Under the pieces are notes generated by a model. The model ran no database searches and was not told the DNA's origin. It was given only the letters and a program-made list of their open reading frames with translations. A program made the position numbers and the translations under genes. A stretch of DNA of 64,000 bases. Source: an uncultured delta proteobacterium (GTDB lineage Bacteria; Desulfobacterota; Binatia; DP-6). The stretch spans positions 49,353 to 113,352 of the forward strand of contig CAWKPA010000006.1 of assembly GCA_963851365.1 (NCBI GenBank), written 5' to 3'. Positions 6,533-64,000 of this stretch are shown here, in pieces. Numbering within the stretch: position 1 is the first letter of the stretch; the number at the start of each line of letters is the position of its first letter.

Positions 6533-7534
6533 TCAGACGGGCGGCGCGGCGGATTCGGCGTCGGGCGGGAAGACGTGGCACGCGACGGCGCGCCCGGTGG
6601 CGCCCGCGACGAGAGGGGGCACCATTCGCCGGCAGATGTCGATCGCGCTGGGGCAGCGGGGATGGAATGCGCAACCCGCGGGTGGCGACGACGGATCGGG
6701 CGCCTCCGCGCCGGCGATCGCCGGCATGGGCCTGTGCCGGCGATGCGGGTCCGGGGTCGGGACGGCGGCCAACAGCGTCCGAGTATAGGGGTGGCGGGGG
6801 TCGTCGTAGACCTCCTGCCGTGTCCCGACCTCGACCAGCTTGCCGAGATACATGATCGCCACCCGATCGCTCAGGTGCTCCACGACACGCAGGTCGTGGG
6901 AGATGAAGAGCAGCGTGAGCCCGAGTCGCCGCTTGAGGTCCTGCAGGAGATTCAGGATCTGCGCCTGGATGGAGACATCGAGCGCCGACACCGCCTCGTC
7001 GGCGACGATGAAGCGCGGCTCCACCGCGAGCGCGCGGGCGATGCCGATGCGCTGCCGCTGGCCGCCGCTGAACTCGTGGGGATAGCGGTCGCCCGCATCC
7101 TGCGGCAGCCCCACCAACGCGAGCAGCGCGCGGACCCGTTCCCGGCGCTCCTCGCGCGTCCCGATCCGATGAACGAGGAGCCCTTCCCCGACGATGTCCG
7201 CGACCCGCAGGCGTGGGTTCAGGGAGCCATACGGATCCTGGAAGACGATCTGCATGGCGCGCCGCACCGCGCGCAGGTCGTCGCCTCCGAGTCCGCGGAG
7301 CGAGCGGCCCTCGAACAGGACGTCGCCGGCCGTGGGCTCGATCAGCCGGAGCACCAGGCGCCCCAGCGTCGACTTGCCGCAGCCCGACTCGCCCACCAGA
7401 CCGAGGGTCTCCCCGGCCGCGATCGCAAGCGACACGCCATCGACCGCACGAACCACCGCGCGCGGTCGGCCGAACAGGCCGCGCCCGACGGGGAAGTGCT
7501 TGTGCACATCCAGGACTTCGACGAGCAGGTTCAT
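6533..7534 (-). CDS. oligopeptide/dipeptide ABC transporter ATP-binding protein (OppF/DppF-like)
   Basis: Walker [10 protein letters not shown], signature LSGGQRQR, Walker B and a C-terminal Opp-type extension. The true start is the internal [10 protein letters not shown]; the ATG overlaps the upstream stop in an ATGA. Confidence 0.85.
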
Positions 7535-8487
7535 GCCCGGATGCACGCTACCCGGTGCCCGGGGTCGCGTTCCTCGAGGGGGGGCACGACGGCGGCGCAC
7601 GCCTCCACCTGGCGGGAACAGCGCTCGCGAAACGCGCAGCCCGGCGGCAGGCTCGTGAGGCTCGGCACCTGGCCGGGGATGGTCTCGAGCCGTTCGCGAC
7701 GCTGGCCCAGCGCAGGCATCGCACGCAGAAGCGCCTGGGTATAGGGGTGCCGCGGCCGGGCGAACAGCTCGTCGACTGGAGCCTGCTCGACGATGCGGCC
7801 CGCATACATGATCGCCACCTCGTCCGCCTGCTCGGCCACCACGCCCAGGTCGTGTGTGATCAAGATCATGGCCATGCCGTGCCGCGCGCGCAGCTCGCGG
7901 AGCAGCGCCAGGATCTCGGCCTGGATCGTCACGTCGAGCGCCGTCGTCGGCTCGTCGGCCAGCAGCACCGCGGGCTCGCACGCGATGGCGACGGCGATCA
8001 TCACCCGCTGGCGCATGCCGCCCGACAGCTGGTGCGGGTAGTCCCGTGCGCGCCGCGCCGGATCGGGGATGCCCACCTCGCGCAGCAGCCCGATGGCGCG
8101 CGCCCAGGCCTCGCGGCGCGACACCGGCTGGTGCAAGGCGACCGCCTCGGCAATCTGGCTGCCGGCCGTGAGCACCGGGTTCAGCGCGGTCATGGGCTCC
8201 TGGAAGATCATCGCCAGTTCGGCGCCGCGCAAGGCGCGCATCTCGGGCTCCGGGAGCGCCAGCAGTTCGCGACCCGCGAGCCGGATGCTTCCCCCGGCGA
8301 TGCGGCCGGGAGGTGGCACCAGGCGCATGATGCAGAGCGCGGTCATGCTCTTGCCGCACCCGGATTCGCCGACGAGCCCGAGCGTGCGCCCGCGGGCGAG
8401 CGAGAACGTCACGCCGTCGACCGCGCGCGCGTCACCCGCCTCGGTCGGGAAGACCATGCGCAGGTCGCGCACCTCGAGGAGCGACAT
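7531..8487 (-). CDS. oligopeptide/dipeptide ABC transporter ATP-binding protein (OppD/DppD-like)
   Basis: [18 protein letters not shown] and [10 protein letters not shown] motifs. The true start is the internal [13 protein letters not shown], not the upstream R-rich extension. Confidence 0.85.
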
Positions 8488-9260
8488 CACCCGGCGGGGA
8501 CGGCGGCCGGCAGCGGCATCACCCGCCGGGTGGACGGTGGCGCGAACAGCCCGTCGTCCAGCAGAACGTTGGTCTCGACCTCGTCGTACGCCAGGCGGGC
8601 GCCCGAGCCGACCAGCGGCGCAGCGACGTCGAGGGCATGCGGGAACCCGTTGCGGTAGTCGTCGAACGCGACGGCGAAGGTGGTCGTCCCGTTGCGTTGC
8701 TCCTCCGCCCGGCGCGGCTCCAGCGTGCGCCCGTCGAACCAGACCCGCTGCTCGCCGTCTTCCAGCGGCACGATCACCAGCCACCGCGCGTCCGGCGCCC
8801 GCTCGAGCCGCGGCTTTGCGTGCGGTACCCGAGCCGGGGGGAGGCCCATCAGGATGTCGACCAGGTCGGCCACCGACACGGGCGCTCCGAGGAACCGCCC
8901 GAGATTGAGGGGCGTCGCCTCGCCTTCATAACGCATCTCCTCCGACGGCGAGTAGGCCCACAGTAGATCGCGCTGCGTCCCGACCGCCAGGACGAGCCCG
9001 AACGGCGACATGACGTCCATGCGCACCGCGGCGGGCCGCCGGACCAGGACGGCCTGACGCGTCCACATCCCCGCCACACCGGCCTTGAGACGCGCACGGG
9101 CGCGGAGTGAGGACAGCGACTCCCGGCGTGCCGCCACGCCGCCCAGCAACCGGACAGCCGACACCCCTTCGATCTCGAGCGGGGGCAACGGGCGCACCGC
9201 GGCGCACCCTGTGAACGCCAGCGCCACGAGCGCCGCGCCCCACCGCCCGGGCACCGTCAC
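8487..9260 (-). CDS. lipoprotein (possible LolB-like outer-membrane lipoprotein)
   Basis: Signal peptide with a lipobox (ALAFTGC). The stop overlaps the oppD-like start; the fold assignment is a guess. Confidence 0.5.
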
Positions 9261-56037: not shown

Positions 56038-57213
56038 ATGTCGACCTTTCCCGAGTTCGTCCCCCCGCGCCGCCTGCTCCTCGGCCCCGGACCGTCGCAG
56101 GTCCACCCACGGGTCTTGCTCGCGATGGCCGCGCCGTTGCTCGGGCATCTCGACCCGGTCTTCCTCGCCATGATGGAGGAGGTGCAGGGAATGCTCCGGA
56201 CGGTGTTCGGCACGGCGAACCCCATCACCATCCCGATCTCGGGGACCGGGAGCGCGGGCATGGAATCCTGCCTGGTCAACCTGATCGAGCCGGGGGACCG
56301 GGTGGTCGTCGGGGTGAACGGCGTCTTCGGCGGGCGCATGGCCGAGGTGGCCGAGCGCGCCGGCGCGACGGTGGTGCGCGTCGAGGCGCCATGGGGCACG
56401 ATCGTGCGCCCCGAGCGGGTGGCCGAAGCGCTCCGCGGCTCCGGTCGCGTGAAGCTGGTCGCCGTGGTGCACGCCGAGACATCCACCGGCGCCTGGCAGC
56501 CGCTCGAGGAGATCGGCCGCCTGGCGCACGAGCACGAAGCGCTCTTCGTGGTCGACTGCGTCACGTCGCTCGGGGGCGTGCCGGTCGACGTCGACGCGCG
56601 GGGCATCGACGCCGCCTACAGCGGCACGCAGAAGTGCCTGTCGTGTCCCCCCGGCCTGGCGCCCGTCACGTTCGGTGCGCGCGCGCTCGCCGCCATCGAG
56701 CGGCGACGGACGAAGGTGCAGAGCTGGTACCTCGACGTCGGACTGCTGGCCCAATACTGGGGGACCGACCGCGTCTACCACCACACCGCGCCCATTTCGA
56801 TGACCTACGCCCTGCGCGAAGCGCTCCGGCTCGTGCTGGAGGAGGGGCTCCCCGACCGCTTCGCCCGGCACGCCCGCAACCACCGGGCGCTCGCCGCGGG
56901 CCTCGCCGCGCTCGGGCTGTCGCTGGCCAGCGAGGAGGGCCGGCGCCTGCCCATGCTGAACGCCGTCACCGTGCCCGACGGCGTCGACGAGGCCCGCGTG
57001 CGCCGGACCCTGCTCGATCGGAACGGGATCGAGATCGGGGGTGGACTGGGCCCGATGAAGGGCGTGGTGTGGCGGATCGGCCTGATGGGTGAATCGAGCC
57101 GACCCGAGCACGTTTTCGCGGTTCTCGCGGCCCTCGAGGACGCGCTGCGTGCCGAGGGCCGATCGCTCACGCCCGGCGCGTCGCTGGCTGCCGCCCAGGC
57201 CGAGTACGCCTGA
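56038..57213 (+). CDS. class-V aminotransferase (alanine-glyoxylate/serine-pyruvate aminotransferase-like)
   Basis: PLP-lysine motif SGTQKCL with AGXT-family sequence. An alternative GTG start lies at 56029. Confidence 0.85.
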   Translation: MSTFPEFVPPRRLLLGPGPSQVHPRVLLAMAAPLLGHLDPVFLAMMEEVQGMLRTVFGTANPITIPISGTGSAGMESCLVNLIEPGDRVVVGVNGVFGGRMAEVAERAGATVVRVEAPWGTIVRPERVAEALRGSGRVKLVAVVHAETSTGAWQPLEEIGRLAHEHEALFVVDCVTSLGGVPVDVDARGIDAAYSGTQKCLSCPPGLAPVTFGARALAAIERRRTKVQSWYLDVGLLAQYWGTDRVYHHTAPISMTYALREALRLVLEEGLPDRFARHARNHRALAAGLAALGLSLASEEGRRLPMLNAVTVPDGVDEARVRRTLLDRNGIEIGGGLGPMKGVVWRIGLMGESSRPEHVFAVLAALEDALRAEGRSLTPGASLAAAQAEYA

Positions 57214-57328
57214 AGCACTCGGCACCGGCGATCGCCCGCGGCGGTCGGTCCCCCAGGCGCGCGCGCCTACCCGAGAGCCCGGGCCCTTCCATACCCCTCG
57301 CCTCTTGCTTTCCCAAGAACGTCAGACA

Positions 57329-58870
57329 TCACGTCTGCAATTCGAGGTCGCCCGGTTGCCAGGTCTGGTCGAACCAGGGTTCCAGCGGCCCATACAGCCG
57401 CAGAATGAGGTTGTACCCCTTGCCCGGCATCGTCTGCACCCAGTTCGACTCGTTGCCCGCCGGCGCCTTCGGCCCGAACCAGATGGTCGCGCCGCCGTCC
57501 GCGTTCTTCTTCAGTCCGGGAACGTTGCTGTCCGTCCCAGCCGACTTCTGATCGGTCGGAAGCAGCGAGCGCGTCTGGTTGTCGTAGACCGTGAAGGCCC
57601 AGAAGTCCGTCGCGGGAATCGGCCCGGGCAACGTCACCGTATAGGTGCGACCGCCGTCGAGGTAGTTCCCGGCCGCATCGCGAAAGGCCAGCGCATAGGC
57701 CGAACCGGTGCCCGGCTTCGCTTCGCTCATGGCGGGCGTGATGCCGGTGGCGAGGTAGAAGAACATCGCCTCGGCGTCGAGCAGTCGCTCCGCACCCGAG
57801 AGGAACTGGTAGCTGCCCCCGACGAACGGCGTGAGCCATTGCCGGTCCTTGAATATCCGGGTGCTGGGATCGCGCGACGCGAATGCGTTCGAGCGAGCGT
57901 AGGCATTGCCCACCGCCACCGCTTCCGTCAACGTCTTCTTCAGCCGCGCGTCCGGCGCGAACGGCTGCCCCTTGCGGATTCCGATGGCTGCGTACAGGCC
58001 CACGGTGTCCGGGTCCACCCAGTCGGCGGGCTCGTTCTGCACCACGGCATTCAGCTCCTCGTAGAAGCTGAAATCGTTGGCGCTGATGGTGTTGAACTTG
58101 ACGCCCGAGAGGTCGACGAAATTCGTCGCCGGGGGCTCGGCAGCCTGGGACAACGGGAACACCCCGGCGTTCGCCTTGACACTGGCAGTCGCGGCGGCGA
58201 GATCGCCCTTCTCGACGAACACACGATAGAAGATCAGCAGTCGGTTGGTGCGCGGCTTCGCGACGTTGAAGCCCTTCTCCGGCAGCGTTCCCTGGTAACC
58301 CGGGGGCACGAAGAGATAGGCCCCGCCCGCGCCCTTGTCGGGCCCCGTCAGTCCCACGTCGGTGACCCAGCGGAAGTCGGCGTCGTCCACGGGGCCGAGT
58401 ACGCGCGGCGGCACCCGCACAACCATCGGCCCGTCCTTCAGATCGACGCACATGAGGACATAGACGGTGGTGGTGTTGGGCGTCAGGAACAGCGAGCGGG
58501 CGTCCATCAGCTGCTCGGTGATGCCGATGCCGCCGTTCGGCCTGACACCCGCCGCTTCCAGGCCGCGACAGATCGCGTACACCGAGGTGGCCGACATGCC
58601 CTTGACGAACACGTCGATGCCGCGATTGAAATCGATCTGGTCGTAGGCCAGCTGGACCGTCGCCGGATCGGGCGCGCCGTCCTTGAAGCGCAGCGTGCCG
58701 ATGCGCGTCTCGACCGTGTCGGGCGTCGTGATCTTCGCCGGTACGTCAGGCGCGTACTTCGGCGAAGCGACGGGCGCACCACCGGGCGTTTGCGCATCGC
58801 TTGCAGCCGCGGTGATCACGATCGCCGCGGCGCACATCACGCAGAGCAGTCGTCGCCGATGTGATCTCAT
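57329..58870 (-). CDS. secreted DUF1254/DUF1214-domain protein
   Basis: 513 aa with a signal peptide and the paired DUF1254 / DUF1214 architecture. Confidence 0.7.
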   Translation of the reverse strand: MRSHRRRLLCVMCAAAIVITAAASDAQTPGGAPVASPKYAPDVPAKITTPDTVETRIGTLRFKDGAPDPATVQLAYDQIDFNRGIDVFVKGMSATSVYAICRGLEAAGVRPNGGIGITEQLMDARSLFLTPNTTTVYVLMCVDLKDGPMVVRVPPRVLGPVDDADFRWVTDVGLTGPDKGAGGAYLFVPPGYQGTLPEKGFNVAKPRTNRLLIFYRVFVEKGDLAAATASVKANAGVFPLSQAAEPPATNFVDLSGVKFNTISANDFSFYEELNAVVQNEPADWVDPDTVGLYAAIGIRKGQPFAPDARLKKTLTEAVAVGNAYARSNAFASRDPSTRIFKDRQWLTPFVGGSYQFLSGAERLLDAEAMFFYLATGITPAMSEAKPGTGSAYALAFRDAAGNYLDGGRTYTVTLPGPIPATDFWAFTVYDNQTRSLLPTDQKSAGTDSNVPGLKKNADGGATIWFGPKAPAGNESNWVQTMPGKGYNLILRLYGPLEPWFDQTWQPGDLELQT

Positions 58871-58948
58871 CCTGCGCTTCCTTCCTTCGCTGGCTCATGG
58901 ACGCTTCCTGGGTGGGTGCGAGTGCTTGGACTTCCACATCCTGGGCGT

Positions 58949-59635
58949 TCACGTGGATTTGCCCTGCGCCACCAACACCGCGGCGAGTTCGCGGGGCTGG
59001 AAGGTGAAGACCGCATGTTCGGAGGCGATCTCGACCGGTGCCACGCCGAGACGCGCCGCCATCTCGCGCTGTTTCGCGGGCGGTATGATCTTGTCCTCCG
59101 TGCAGAGCACATAGGTGCGGGCCACGTCGGGAAGCAACCGGCTGGGCCAGGGCTGTTCCAACGCTGCCCAGCCCTGGGGACGCTGCGTGGCTCTGAGGAA
59201 GGCAAGATACGCCTCCCGCTCTTCCGGTGGCGCCAGCGAGGCCAGCATCTCCAGGTCAAACGACCGGCAGCCGTTGCCGTCGTCACGTGAGACCGACAGC
59301 ATCGTCTCGCGAACATCGGCGCCAACGACATCTGCGATCGAGCGCCCCGGCTCGGGAACGACCGCCGTCACATAGACCAGACGGTCGACGGGAGTCCGAC
59401 CGGGCACGAGCGAGATCGTCGCGCCGCCCGCCGAATGGCCGACCACCACGACCGGCCCTTCGATCCCGACCATCGCCTCGACCACCGTCCTGGCGTAATC
59501 GTCGAGTGTCGCCGCCGGGTCCGTGCACGGCAGGTCGACCGCGATGGCACGGTGACCGTGCGCCTCGAGCAAGGGAATCACCGGCGCCAGTTCGGCGGGG
59601 CTGCCGAACGCACCGTGGACGAGAACGAAGGTCGC
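58949..59635 (-). CDS. alpha/beta-hydrolase (esterase) family protein
   Basis: Nucleophile elbow GHSAGG and HGAFG oxyanion region; about 228 aa. Confidence 0.8.
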   Translation of the reverse strand, partial: ATFVLVHGAFGSPAELAPVIPLLEAHGHRAIAVDLPCTDPAATLDDYARTVVEAMVGIEGPVVVVGHSAGGATISLVPGRTPVDRLVYVTAVVPEPGRSIADVVGADVRETMLSVSRDDGNGCRSFDLEMLASLAPPEEREAYLAFLRATQRPQGWAALEQPWPSRLLPDVARTYVLCTEDKIIPPAKQREMAARLGVAPVEIASEHAVFTFQPRELAAVLVAQGKST

Positions 59636-59752
59636 CATCTCGATCACCTCTGCGAACAGGGGCTTAGCATCAGTGTGGTGACAGGCATGTGTCCTCGATC
59701 ACCGACACCCGTTTTCCGCTCGTCATGCCTACCGCCTTCCGATGGGCGTCCG

Positions 59753-59886
59753 CCCAACGGACTTGGCGCTCAACTGAGTGGCACAGGCCGCCGACGGTCG
59801 CTGAGGCACCCATGTTGAATGCCAGAAGGCCATCAGGGTCGATCGGAACGCGCCGTGCCACGTCAGCTGCAGCGCCTTGTTGGGCT
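59753..59886. repeat. attC-like integron recombination site (3' of methyltransferase cassette)
   Basis: Bounded by GCCCAAC (59753-59759) and GTTGGGC (59880-59886). The internal arms TTGGCGCTCAACTGAGTGGCAC and GTGCCACGTCAGCTGCAGCGCCTT form a long imperfect hairpin. Total length 134 bp. Confidence 0.6.
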
Positions 59887-59923
59887 GCATGCGCGGCCCT
59901 GAGCCGAGATTGGGAAGGCACGG

Positions 59924-60736
59924 CTACGACTTCGTTCCCGCCACGATGTGTGCTGGCGATTGGAACTCGACTGTTCCGGCGGCCGTGACATAACGGCTCA
60001 GCGCGTGCTCGGCTTCCTCGAGGATCTGCTGAATCTGCTCCTCTGGCAGGACAACTCCCATCACGGGTAGCCACCCGCGAAGATCTGCTTCCACCATTGT
60101 GCGGACGCTCGGGAAACGCGCTGTTCCGTAATGGGTTGTGATGTCGACGGACTCGACGCCAGCGCTCCGGAAGAGCCCGTCAAGTTCCGTGGGATCGCCG
60201 AGCACGAACGGGGCGCGAAGGGCTTCGGCCGCCTCCGAGCCTGCAACTCGCTCGAGGAGGTCCACCTCGATCGGGTACGCCTCGGACCTTTCGAGGGATT
60301 CCCAAACGGCCACGGCTATCCGACCTCCCGGGACGAGCACTCGTGTCATCTCGCGAAGCGCTGCACTTCGATCCGTGAAGAACATCAAGCCGAACTGGCT
60401 GACGACTGCGTTGAAGGAGCATTCGTCGTAGGGGAGGGATTCTGCAACACCTTCCTGCCATCGGACACCAGGTTCGAGGCGTTCGGCTACTACGAGCATC
60501 CCGGGATTCGGATCGACGCCAGCCACGAATCCCTGCGACCCCACACGCGACGCAGCCTCCCGCGCGAGAACCCCCGTCCCGCACGCCACGTCGAGCACGC
60601 GGTCGCCGGCGCGAACCTGCGCGACGTCCACGACACGCAGGGCCCATTGCTCGAATAGGGCTGGTACGTGGAGCTCCTCGTAGGCTGACGCTGCTGCGAT
60701 TCCCTCTTCGAACGCAGAACTCACGGCGTTCTCCAT
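59924..60736 (-). CDS. class I SAM-dependent methyltransferase (UbiE/COQ5-like); integron cassette ORF
   Basis: SAM-binding motifs VLDVACGTG and LVPGGRIAV. The ATG lies 3 nt after a GTTGGGC core on the coding strand. Confidence 0.8.
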   Translation of the reverse strand: MENAVSSAFEEGIAAASAYEELHVPALFEQWALRVVDVAQVRAGDRVLDVACGTGVLAREAASRVGSQGFVAGVDPNPGMLVVAERLEPGVRWQEGVAESLPYDECSFNAVVSQFGLMFFTDRSAALREMTRVLVPGGRIAVAVWESLERSEAYPIEVDLLERVAGSEAAEALRAPFVLGDPTELDGLFRSAGVESVDITTHYGTARFPSVRTMVEADLRGWLPVMGVVLPEEQIQQILEEAEHALSRYVTAAGTVEFQSPAHIVAGTKS

Positions 60737-60739
60737 GCC

Positions 60740-60803
60740 GCCCAACGTTCCGGTTCAGCGGCGGGCCGCGCAGCGGACCGTCCGCTGCAACCGGTTGTTA
60801 TGT
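60740..60803. repeat. attC-like integron recombination site
   Basis: GCCCAAC (60740-60746) to GTTATGT (60797-60803), 64 bp. Internal perfect palindrome GCAGCGGAC-g-GTCCGCTGC. About 85% identical to the site at 63715-63777. Confidence 0.6.
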
Positions 60804-60823
60804 GATTCGCTCGGTACGGTCCG

Positions 60824-62117
60824 GGGACATAGGTAACACTTCAGTCCGGAGACATGGGTGACACTTTGAGGGCAGTGGAGGCACCGCAGGAGGTGCCTCA
60901 TGCCCTGGAGGGAGACGACACCCATGCATCAACGCACCCTGTTCATAGCTGATCATCTGCGCGGCGCCCGCTCGGTGACGGAGCTCTGCGCCGAGTACGG
61001 CATCTCCCGCAAGACGGCCTACAAGTGGATCGATCGCTACATCCGGCGCGGGCCACTGGGCCTCGAGGATCGCTCCCGCCGGCCCCGCGGTACCCCTACC
61101 GCAACGCCCGCCCCGATCGTTGACGCGCTGATCGCGCTGCGCCAACGGCATCCGACCTGGGGCCCGAAGAAACTGGTGGCCTACCTGCACCGCCGTCACC
61201 CCACGTGGTCGCTGCCGGGCCGCTCGGCTACCGCCGCGCTGCTCAAGCGCCGCGGGTTGATCCGCCGCCGCACCCCACGACGCGTGATCGGCCATCCCGG
61301 CAAGCCCAACGCGTTGATCGTGGCACCGAACCAGGTCTGGTGCGCGGACTTCAAGGGCCAGTTTCGGATGGGCAACGGGCGGTACTGCTATCCGCTCACC
61401 GTGACCGATGGCTTCAGCCGCTACCTCCTCGGCTGCCACGGCCTGGCGAGCACCGCCGTCCAGGGCGCCAAGCCCGTCTTCACGCGGCTGTTTCAGGAGT
61501 ACGGGCTGCCGCAGTACATCCGCAGCGACAACGGCGTCCCGTTCGCCACCAATACCCTGGCGCGGCTCTCGCGACTGTCGGCGTGGTGGGTGCGGCTCGG
61601 CATCCTCCCCCAGCTCATCGAACCCGGGCGACCGCAGCAGAACGGGCGGCACGAGCGCATGCACCGGACGCTGAAGCAGGAAGCCACCCGGCCCCCGGCC
61701 GCCGCGATGCCCTCGCAGCAACAGCGGTTCGATCGCTTCCGCCGCGAGTTCAACGAGGAGCGCCCTCATGAAGCCCTGGACCAGCAGACGCCCGCGGCCG
61801 TGTATCAGCCATCGCCCCGGCCAATGCCGAGCAAGCTGCCTCCGCTCGAGTATCCCGATCGCTTCGAAGTCCGCTACGTCAGCGCCAACGGGGGCATCCG
61901 CTGGAACAAGGCCTGGGTGAACGTGTCCACAACCTGCATCGGCGAGTACGTCGGCCTCGACGAGATCGACGACGGGATCTGGAACGTGTACTTCGGGCGC
62001 TTGCGACTCGGCCGCCTCTTGGAACGATCGATGAAGATCGAGGACGCCTATGGGAGACTCTATCGGCACCGGCGACTGTTACCCATGTCCTCGGACTAAT
62101 CTGTCACCCATGTCCTC
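60824..62117 (+). mobile_element. IS481-family insertion sequence
   Basis: About 1.29 kb. The left end has tandem GACATAGGTAACAC / GACATGGGTGACAC. The right end has the inverted copies CTGTTACCCATGTCC / CTGTCACCCATGTCC. It encodes one DDE transposase. Confidence 0.8.
60900..62099 (+). CDS. IS481-family DDE transposase
   Basis: 399 aa with an N-terminal HTH (SRKTAYKWIDRY) and an integrase-core DDE domain (CADFKG ... RSDNG ... QQNGRHER). Confidence 0.85.
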   Translation: MPWRETTPMHQRTLFIADHLRGARSVTELCAEYGISRKTAYKWIDRYIRRGPLGLEDRSRRPRGTPTATPAPIVDALIALRQRHPTWGPKKLVAYLHRRHPTWSLPGRSATAALLKRRGLIRRRTPRRVIGHPGKPNALIVAPNQVWCADFKGQFRMGNGRYCYPLTVTDGFSRYLLGCHGLASTAVQGAKPVFTRLFQEYGLPQYIRSDNGVPFATNTLARLSRLSAWWVRLGILPQLIEPGRPQQNGRHERMHRTLKQEATRPPAAAMPSQQQRFDRFRREFNEERPHEALDQQTPAAVYQPSPRPMPSKLPPLEYPDRFEVRYVSANGGIRWNKAWVNVSTTCIGEYVGLDEIDDGIWNVYFGRLRLGRLLERSMKIEDAYGRLYRHRRLLPMSSD

Positions 62118-62123
62118 ACCCGC

Positions 62124-62619
<496 letters not shown>

Positions 62620-62647
62620 TCACCGCCTCCAACACCCCGAGGTCTCC

Positions 62648-62755
62648 GCCTAACGCCCTGGCGGCTCAGCGGCCGCCGGAGTCGAAGCTAGCACGCCTTG
62701 CGCCGCGGCGGTCAATGCAGTACCGACCGAGGGCCGCTGTAGCCGCGAGTTCGAC
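62648..62755. repeat. attC-like integron recombination site
   Basis: GCCTAAC (62648-62654) to GTTCGAC (62749-62755), 108 bp. The coding strand ends in the canonical GTTAGGC; the arms are complementary. Confidence 0.55.
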
Positions 62756-62762
62756 GTGCCGA

Positions 62763-63083
62763 TCATGACGTGAGTCCTGGCACAACCTCTGACCAGATTC
62801 GCTCCGCTACAGCTTGATACTTCTCGGGTGGGCCGGCGGTCGCGGCGTCGAACCACCCGACGAACTCCTCATGCACTACGCGTCTGACGTCGTGCACGGA
62901 GCGGCAGTCGCGGAGTCGCGGCAGGATCGTGCCTGCCTCCGGCTCGTACTCGTCGGTATTGTCCTCGAACTTGACCCCGACGGGGTCCTCACTGAACAGA
63001 ATGCTGCTAAGGCGCTCGTAAGCAATTTCGTACTGGTGCCTCAGTTGATCGCGCCGCTTCCGAACATCGTCGCTTGCGCTCAC
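62763..63083 (-). CDS. hypothetical protein; integron cassette ORF
   Basis: 106 aa (..SILFSEDPVGVKFEDNTDEYEPEAGTILPRL..) with a GTG start; bracketed by attC-like sites. Confidence 0.5.
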   Translation of the reverse strand: MSASDDVRKRRDQLRHQYEIAYERLSSILFSEDPVGVKFEDNTDEYEPEAGTILPRLRDCRSVHDVRRVVHEEFVGWFDAATAGPPEKYQAVAERIWSEVVPGLTS

Positions 63084-63098
63084 TCGGAGTCCTCGTCC

Positions 63099-63212
63099 GT
63101 CGAACGATGGCCGCTAAGCCGCGGCCGCGCGTGAGGCTACCACGACGCGTGTCGAGCACAGCTGCTCGCGTGGCTGATGCCCGCGGCCGTCAGCTTCAGC
63201 GGCTTGTTGGGC
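63099..63212. repeat. attC-like integron recombination site
   Basis: GTCGAAC (63099-63105) to GTTGGGC (63206-63212), 114 bp. The AAGCCGC / GCGGCTT and GGCCGCG arms pair. The 3' end resembles the site at 59753-59886. Confidence 0.55.
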
Positions 63213-63231
63213 GGCATGCCTGGGGAGGACG

Positions 63232-63672
63232 TCAGCTCGCGGAGTTCCAGATGTCGCGATGAAGCTTCCACTGTTCACCCTCTCGCTTCCAGACCACTAC
63301 GTAGCGACCCTCCGTGACCTTTCCGTCCTTGGCAACGAGCCGGACGATTCCGGTCTCGCACGCAAGATCGCCCGACGATTCAACCTGGGCCGTCTGCAGA
63401 GTGAGATCCTTGACCCCCGTGCTGATGGTGGCTTGCCAAGCGGCCGCGATGGCTGCGCGGCCGGATGCGATGGGTGCGCCTGGAGCGATGACTTGTGCGT
63501 CTTCTGTGTAGAGTTCAGCGACCGCGCGAGCGTCGCCGCGAAGGAACGCAGCGATGAATGCGCGGTTTCCGGATTCAACTGCTTCGCGAACTGAATCAGC
63601 ATAGGCAGAGTGACTGAACAGCATGCACACGGCGGCGAGCCACCCTGCCAGGAGTCTCGTTAATCTCGTCAT
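63232..63672 (-). CDS. secreted SnoaL-like/NTF2-like (DUF4440-type) protein; integron cassette ORF
   Basis: Signal peptide ending SAYA. The SnoaL-like sequence is DAQVIAPGAPIASGRAAIAAAW ... RYVVVWKREGEQWKL. An AGGAAAGGAG Shine-Dalgarno precedes the ATG. Confidence 0.65.
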   Translation of the reverse strand: MTRLTRLLAGWLAAVCMLFSHSAYADSVREAVESGNRAFIAAFLRGDARAVAELYTEDAQVIAPGAPIASGRAAIAAAWQATISTGVKDLTLQTAQVESSGDLACETGIVRLVAKDGKVTEGRYVVVWKREGEQWKLHRDIWNSAS

Positions 63673-63714
63673 TTCTTGTCTCCTTTCCTCGAACGAGAAG
63701 GCGATGGCGATGGC

Positions 63715-63777
63715 GCCCAACGACCTGGCGGTTCAGCGGCGGCGCGCAGCGCCGTCCGCTGCAAGCGCGGGTTATGC
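63715..63777. repeat. attC-like integron recombination site
   Basis: GCCCAAC (63715-63721) to GTTATGC (63771-63777), 63 bp. On the coding strand it reads GCATAAC ... GTTGGGC, with nested stems GCAGCGG/CCGCTGA and CGGCGC/GCGCCG. It overlaps the stop codon of the upstream ORF. Confidence 0.6.
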
Positions 63778-64000
63778 GGCCTCGATCTCCTTGAGTGTTG
63801 TCCCCTTCGCGTTCTTCCACGCGATGAGACCGTTCGCATGCCCCCCGTGAACAACTGATGCCGCCGCGCTCGGACTCGCGAACTCGACATCGCGAATGAA
63901 TACAAGAGCACCCGCCTCTTCGACAAGCAATCCGTCGTTCCGTAGTTGATCACGCGCCTGTCGCGGAATCGGGTACTTCTCAGTCGAGGGGCGTTCTCGT
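63772..64000 (-). CDS. hypothetical protein, 3' part (5' end beyond window)
   Basis: The minus-strand frame ends ...KYPIPRQARDQLRNDGLLVEEAGALVFIRDVEFASPSAAASVVHGGHANGLIAWKNAKGTTLKEIEAA* with protein-like composition. It is not in the supplied ORF track because no start lies in the window. Confidence 0.4.
   Translation of the reverse strand, partial: RERPSTEKYPIPRQARDQLRNDGLLVEEAGALVFIRDVEFASPSAAASVVHGGHANGLIAWKNAKGTTLKEIEAA

Follow-up and report, generated by a model that had tools for sequence, protein, structure and literature searches.

Chromosomal integrons, as well as attC-site clusters that lack an integron-integrase (CALINs), carry compact, co-oriented gene cassettes, mostly of unknown function or encoding toxin-antitoxin pairs, each of which ends in an attC site (PMC4889954, PMC9024848). 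To count as a CALIN, two or more attC sites must share a strand with less than 4 kb between them, and an integrase gene (intI) must be lacking in the vicinity (PMC4889954, PMC9024848). The attC site itself is defined on its bottom strand by 5'-RYYYAAC in the R' box and 5'-GTTRRRY in the R'' box, with conserved AAC and GTT triplets; the opposite arm has extrahelical bases, one at position 16 (usually a G) and one at position 23/24 (a conserved T), with a 6-bp stem between them, and the total length is 57-141 bp (PMC5027507). Here we analyse a 64-kb stretch of contig CAWKPA010000006.1 (the window, always meaning the whole stretch), whose right end, positions 59752-64000, very probably represents the distal portion of a chromosomal integron cassette array carried by a high-GC soil bacterium that most likely belongs to the class Binatia. 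The preliminary description of this DNA had already proposed a cassette array here, and the proposal is supported by the geometry of the sites, by covariation, by the reach of a covariance model to arrays linked to integron integrases and to class 1 arrays, and by exact G|TT cassette boundaries. Like the known chromosomal arrays and CALINs, this one lies in a chromosome and has two or more same-strand attC sites within 4 kb; it also harbours an insertion sequence (IS), which is common in such arrays. Unlike them, its host appears to belong to the Binatia; no paper treating integrons together with Binatia was found in the library searched, which is not proof of novelty.

Reading of the sequence together with a listing of open reading frames (ORFs) revealed a series of minus-strand ORFs in the 58.5-64 kb region with five palindromic elements between them, designated attC A to E. 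All five had been noted before, four of them with exact coordinates; site A lies one base to the left of the position first noted. On the minus strand, attC A (59752-59885, 134 nt), the last recognisable attC, has the top-strand boxes R'' GCCCAAC and R' GTTGGGC; attC B (60740-60803, 64 nt), presumed to be the attC of the brnT cassette, has ACATAAC and GTTGGGC; attC C (62648-62755, 108 nt) GTCGAAC and GTTAGGC; attC E (63099-63212, 114 nt) GCCCAAC and GTTCGAC; and attC D (63715-63777, 63 nt), the attC of the DUF4357 cassette, GCATAAC and GTTGGGC. Read on the plus strand, the sites begin on the left with GCCCAAC (A, B and D), GCCTAAC (C) or GTCGAAC (E) and finish on the right with GTTGGGC (A and E), GTTATGT (B), GTTCGAC (C) or GTTATGC (D). 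Each of the five keeps the AAC and GTT triplets, whereas the canonical core and inverse-core heptamers, first described as bounding every site, occur at both ends only in site A. Four sites have the full R' consensus RYYYAAC (the exception is E, with GTCGAAC) and two the full R'' consensus GTTRRRY, the other three R'' boxes (GTTATGT, GTTATGC and GTTCGAC) each being one base off. Mismatches within the inner R boxes are expected, because TTRRRY is swapped at every recombination. The site lengths, 63-134 nt, are all inside the known range. A GCATGC/CATGCC motif was also seen to abut the GCCCAAC/GTTGGGC box at 59885-59892, 60734-60746 and 63212-63219, on differing strands, and in site B it contains the methyltransferase start codon; this may be a coincidence or a slightly longer conserved box.

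On the plus strand, all five sites follow one layout. The 5' side consists of RYYYAAC, 3-6 unpaired bases, a 6-bp stem and a second 6-bp stem; the middle is formed by an additional stem and a variable loop; and the return arm contains two 6-bp segments, the first preceded by a bulged T and the second by a bulged C, and then 2 unpaired bases before GTTNNNY. Counted from the R'' (3') end, the bulges are at positions 16 (C) and 23 (T). The extrahelical bases that folding of the bottom strands had been expected to reveal were indeed found: A, B, D and E have both of them, opposite the AAC triplet and 6 bp apart, and C has one. In the fold of attC B they are T42 and C49, which become 23 and 16 when numbered from the 3' end. 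Folding as single-stranded DNA gave end-to-end hairpins with z-scores of -1.6 to -4.9 versus shuffled sequences. For attC A, the end-to-end hairpin has z = -3.8 and the 3' arm is 91% identical to the 3' arm of attC E; fold and arm identity support 59752-59885 as the full site. As the site geometry matches the published attC definition (PMC5027507), the plus strand of the window is the recombinogenic bottom strand, which fits the location of the cassette genes on the minus strand. One example hairpin that had been offered for site B, GCAGCGGAC-c-GTCCGCTGC, is a local palindrome that found no support in the minimum-energy fold or in the covariation; the supported pairing joins the 5' arm CCGGTT-CAGCGG with the 3' arm CCGCTG-C-AACCGG. 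An inverted orientation of sites A and E relative to B and D, considered from the occurrence of CATGCCGCCCAAC on opposite strands, was dropped, as all five sites share the bulge pattern of the plus-strand 3' arm.

A covariance model (R1) was built from trimmed copies of the five window sites. Its scores are 76.1 bits for D, 74.1 for B, 56.8 for C and 56.3 for E, and in the remaining ~59 kb of the window it found no other match with E<0.01 on either strand. Outside the window, R1 gave strong and independent matches in unrelated contigs, and all significant R1 matches in 17 related loci are on the strand opposite the cassette gene. The model furthermore recognises attC sites of class 1 integrons: on three class 1 plasmids it detected the attC of aac(6')-IIa (41 bits) and of aadA5 (28 bits), with weaker matches to the dfrA15 and aacA4 sites, always on the correct strand and with the true attC as the best match per locus. 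In an alignment of 20 sites from five contigs, 92% of the cells are paired, versus at most 47% with the partners slid, 10 of the 15 stem pairs are changed on both sides, and the observed covariation score was reached by none of 500 shuffles; this alignment was fitted to the model and therefore leans towards the structure. Position 23 is a T in 17 and position 16 a C in 19 of these 20 related sites.

Class 1 attC sites, among them those of aac(6')-IIa and aadA5, resemble the window sites in their fold, strand asymmetry, extrahelical positions 16 and 23 and 6-bp spacing (PMC5027507). They have, however, G16, a 5-nt spacer in the R'' arm and a 3-bp L box, whereas the window sites have C16, a 2-nt spacer and positions 10-15 all paired. 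Class 1 integrons are also unlike the window in carrying mostly antibiotic-resistance cassettes, in being located on plasmids or transposons and in their divergent intI1.

Further evidence comes from the second cassette, a complete 616-nt unit (63105-63720, minus strand) composed of an ORF for a secreted SnoaL-like/DUF4440 protein (63232-63672; Pfam DUF4440, E = 1.7e-18; SnoaL_2, E = 9e-14; signal-peptide-like N-terminus) and its own attC E. A scan with this protein, restricted to one genome per species, returned six loci. In one of them (L001, positions 236-851), the cassette is 96.3% identical at the nucleotide level to window positions 63721-63106 over 616 nt. The homology starts exactly at GTTGGGC, the R' box of attC D, with unrelated sequences upstream, and stops at the G of the next R' box, after which the window goes on with TTCGAC and L001 with TTATGC. 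Breaks at both G|TT points are the signature of a cassette inserted by recombination in two contexts; the exact boundaries were examined for this one cassette. L001 is a 2.2-kb contig binned to Phycisphaeraceae, and the presence of a 96%-identical cassette on contigs of different phyla may reflect either real sharing across phyla or mis-binning of this short contig. Another relative of the cassette (on L002) is 86% identical and lies downstream of a true intI. The attC that follows it (L002 10440-10702) has ends matching attC E and ~128 extra nt in its middle, and was missed by the model because it is too long.

Taken as a whole, the array comprises four complete cassettes and one that is cut by the window edge. 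Its right edge is the upstream side relative to the orientation of the cassettes, and it falls inside a cassette; an exact 50-mer from this edge did not occur in the metagenome collection searched. Each cassette is a promoter-less minus-strand gene or gene pair with its own attC after it. In single-stranded form, the plus strand folds each attC into an imperfect hairpin with RYYYAAC on the 5' side and the two extrahelical bases on the opposite arm. According to the mechanism that we propose, IntI would bind the folded attC and cut between the A and the C of AAC, which corresponds to G|TT on the coding strand, and cassettes cut at G|TT would be excised as circles and reinserted. We infer that the present cassettes may still be mobilisable, and that their transcription may start at a promoter located right of the window. 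Between 59600 and 64000 no sigma-70-like promoter was detected, a result that fits promoter-less cassettes and carries little weight.

As stated in the preliminary description, there is no intI in the window (all tblastn matches had E>0.4). L002 is a contig of a 'Deltaproteobacteria' metagenome-assembled genome (MAG) which encodes a 360-aa integrase (TIGR02249, 464 bits versus a cut-off of 265), then four R1-type attC sites and the SnoaL cassette. This IntI is 53% identical to IntI1 and 65% identical to a protein encoded on a 1.1-Mb replicon of Gemmatirosa kalamazoonensis, where R1 has 33 matches starting 670 nt after the integrase gene (C16 in 32 and T23 in 28 of the 33). The Gemmatirosa array is among the largest 'plasmid' integrons reported by IntegronFinder 2.0 (PMC9024848). 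In both L002 and Gemmatirosa (L008), which are complete integrons, intI runs in the same direction as the cassettes, with its 3' end towards the array; this is the 'inverted integron-integrase' arrangement of Cury et al. (PMC4889954). Because of this co-orientation, an intI of the present array is expected right of the window on the minus strand, and not on the plus strand as had been predicted. Integron integrases of this clade are abundant in soil metagenomes and in MAGs of many phyla, and the L002 integrase has about 8,000 relatives.

The Gemmatirosa kalamazoonensis KBS708 integron shares with the window the succession of RYYYAAC, GTT-CAGCTG, T23, a 6-bp stem, C16, AAC and GTTAGGC. Its cassettes are co-oriented with an integrase that is present there, whereas none is seen in the window. 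Moreover, its sites are homogeneous (33, nearly all 94-99 nt), in contrast to the heterogeneous window sites (63-134 nt, at least two sequence groups), and the R'' arm spacer in the window is shorter than in Gemmatirosa.

These comparisons leave two accounts of the array. According to the first, it belongs to a complete chromosomal integron, probably a sedentary one, with intI (on the minus strand), attI and the cassette promoter directly right of the window, and we give this slightly less than an even chance. Indeed, the array leaves the right, upstream edge still inside a cassette, the 436,985-bp source contig continues right of the window, and both L002 and Gemmatirosa have intI followed by co-oriented cassettes with the same attC type. 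However, none of the best 120 of the about 8,000 relatives of the L002 integrase comes from the source contig, which is a weak argument, and in complete genomes CALINs occur about as often as complete integrons (2961 vs 2760; PMC9024848). A sedentary chromosomal integron is recognised by more than 10-19 attC sites or by its presence in all genomes of a species, and five sites are visible here.

According to the second account, whose chances likewise fall just short of even, the array is a CALIN, either left behind by a rearrangement or by the loss of the integrase, or seeded by an integrase whose gene lies elsewhere, and would serve only as a cassette reservoir. It has five attC sites on one strand, gaps under 2 kb and no intI to the left; in fact, neither intI nor a remnant of it was found in the 59.7 kb to the left or elsewhere in the window. 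The IS inside the array, the near-identical transposase on the source contig and the lack of a target duplication make an IS-mediated rearrangement possible. Furthermore, a related metagenomic array (L007 1951-6702) contains six R1-type attC sites, each after a small plus-strand gene (NUDIX, O-methyltransferase, hydrolase, DUF3237, SDR and others), and no integrase; upstream it borders on unrelated minus-strand genes (Methyltransf_33; DinB_2/FGE-sulfatase), and it has the appearance of a CALIN. (In L007, apparently just the 5' half of an attC follows a DUF3995 gene with its stop at 7380.) Against the CALIN account, the upstream (right) side of the present array is outside the window, and at least five consistently oriented cassettes suit either state equally.

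Several observations weigh against the interpretation as an integron cassette array. R1 aligns site A only in its 5' part (59752-59820, 24.9 bits). The model mis-partners this site internally, because its 134-nt span exceeds what the model accommodates; the left end of attC A is paired by R1 with an internal GTTGAAT at 59814-59820, a possible shorter alternative fold. Site C has the position-16 bulge only, which is a T, and is without the position-23 bulge. The base bulged at position 16 is otherwise a C, where the usual base is a G, and the unpaired central spacer of the R'' arm is just 2 nt long versus the usual 5-6 nt. Among the five sites, three R'' boxes and one R' box do not keep the strict GTTRRRY/RYYYAAC consensus. 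A tblastn search of all 64 kb, in which three IntI proteins served as queries, detected neither intI nor a remnant of it (best E = 0.4), no attI or Pc promoter was seen in the window, and recombination by an integron integrase at these sites is a prediction from sequence. A reading of the elements as REP-like (repetitive extragenic palindromic) repeats, terminators or other intergenic palindromes with chance GTT/AAC ends, to which G+C-rich intergenic hairpins downstream of ORFs with no integrase in view might lend themselves, is nevertheless very hard to sustain, as the elements are confined to one 4.3-kb stretch of the 64-kb window, their asymmetric bulges are at the exact attC positions, a cassette recurs with exact G|TT boundaries, R1 finds arrays abutting true integron integrases as well as class 1 attC sites, and none of the five sites showed a T-tract terminator in a terminator scan. 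No Rfam family matches anywhere in the window.

The cassette contents were largely identified correctly in the preliminary description: the methyltransferase, BrnT, the SnoaL-like protein and the partial ORF were confirmed, the last being assigned to DUF4357 by Pfam, whereas 'brnA' has no family match and had been named from its position only. Cassette 1, cut by the window edge, contains the 3' part of the DUF4357-domain ORF (63772-64000, minus strand; Pfam PF14267, E = 1.3e-17). The frame stays open up to the window edge; homologues are ~124-128 aa long and top out at 87% identity to the truncated protein. Its TAA stop lies within the R'' box GCATAAC of attC D. The ORF of cassette 3 (62763-63083, minus strand) encodes a 106-aa protein assigned to no family, without significant match in Pfam and NCBIfam searches. 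Cassette 5 (ORF 59924-60736, minus strand) encodes a class I S-adenosylmethionine-dependent methyltransferase (Pfam Ubie_methyltran, Methyltransf_25 and Methyltransf_11, E about 1e-20), whose ATG is 3 nt past the GTTGGGC of attC B.

Cassette 4 (genes at 62124-62598, minus strand) consists of the toxin gene brnT (62335-62598) and an overlapping ORF for a 75-aa partner (62124-62351). BrnT matches BrnT_toxin (PF04365) with E = 6e-24 and 84.6 bits versus a cut-off of 34.5. The partner, whose gene call was taken from an independent contig, has no match in Pfam, NCBIfam or PDB, and is presumed to be the antitoxin from its position and overlap only. The pair resembles the type II BrnT/BrnA systems in the succession of a strong BrnT_toxin gene and a small overlapping ORF, and differs from them in that the partner matches no BrnA or antitoxin family and that an IS481-like element interrupts the cassette. 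Toxin-antitoxin pairs are typical cassettes of large chromosomal arrays. As further support for the cassette boundaries, the nearest metagenomic homologues of the pair have an R1-type attC directly after them (L012-L014, L020, L021 and L027), in L014 an attC similar to attC B after the brnTA homologue, and among 80 brnT loci all 18 significant R1 matches are on the strand opposite the gene. An independent sequencing run also records cassette 3 followed by brnT: a 1111-bp contig of the Logan run ERR12037369 encodes identical 106-aa, BrnT and 75-aa proteins. This contig ends 26 nt past the brnA-like stop, i.e., ~18 nt into the IS end, which suggests that the same IS junction exists in that sample.

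The IS481-like element (60825-62115, plus strand; transposase ORF 60900-62099) is situated between the brnA-like stop codon and attC B. It has landed inside the brnT cassette, splitting the brnT genes from attC B. Its ends are 39-nt imperfect inverted repeats (60825-60863 and 62077-62115), and each of them contains two copies of a GGACATGGGTGACA-like motif. The transposase matches the Pfam families rve, rve_3 and LZ_Tnp_IS481, and scores 214 bits with the NCBIfam model transpos_IS481 (NF033577), slightly below the cut-off of 224. No direct repeat flanks the element as a target-site duplication, and no empty site was found. The source contig also has a recorded transposase differing at 5 residues, and the window itself has no second copy; two copies of the IS could have recombined and thereby rearranged the array.

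Directly past the last attC follows a gene for an alpha/beta-hydrolase (58949-59647, minus strand; Abhydrolase_6, E = 1e-21), which may be flanking DNA or a former cassette. It belongs to a cluster of 221 sequences with at least 90% identity from many metagenomes, and a 91%-identical copy is present directly past the end of the L007 array (8061-8762). The homology between the two loci is limited to the ORF and its ribosome-binding site. As no attC follows the gene in the window or in L007 and the homology is confined to the ORF, a reading of the hydrolase as the last cassette found no support. The rest of the window, with groEL, ffh and further housekeeping genes, has a G+C content of about 0.71-0.72, which drops to 0.62-0.65 in the array. 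The GroEL encoded there is 90-91% identical to proteins assigned to Candidatus Binatia and 89% identical to those of 'Deltaproteobacteria bacterium' MAGs, which makes Binatia the probable class of the host. The G+C content is already 0.65-0.68 (versus 0.71-0.73) over ~57100-59700, where a DUF1254/DUF1214 gene (57329-58870) and the hydrolase are located, and foreign DNA may reach further left than the recognisable array.

Integron cassette arrays are already well known, and the present one leaves the current picture of integrons unchanged. It adds a clear example of cassettes in a chromosome that is most likely of Binatia, a widespread uncultured soil lineage, and it illustrates that single cassettes (the secreted SnoaL-like cassette and the brnT modules) are common to contigs assigned to different phyla. 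The features specific to this family, i.e., C16, the short R'' arm spacer and probably the co-oriented integrase, are small. Tentatively, the window might sample a soil-wide cassette pool served by one large co-oriented ('inverted') integrase clade with C16 attC sites, with cassettes moving across phyla and Binatia chromosomes acting as integrase-less reservoirs, although this proposal is more doubtful than probable. The consistent C16 in this array, in the related metagenomic arrays and in Gemmatirosa is a small variation on the attC rule, which could help to show how integrases of this environmental clade read their sites. Should C16 determine recognition by these integrases, these sites and their integrases would constitute a functionally distinct attC/IntI specificity group.

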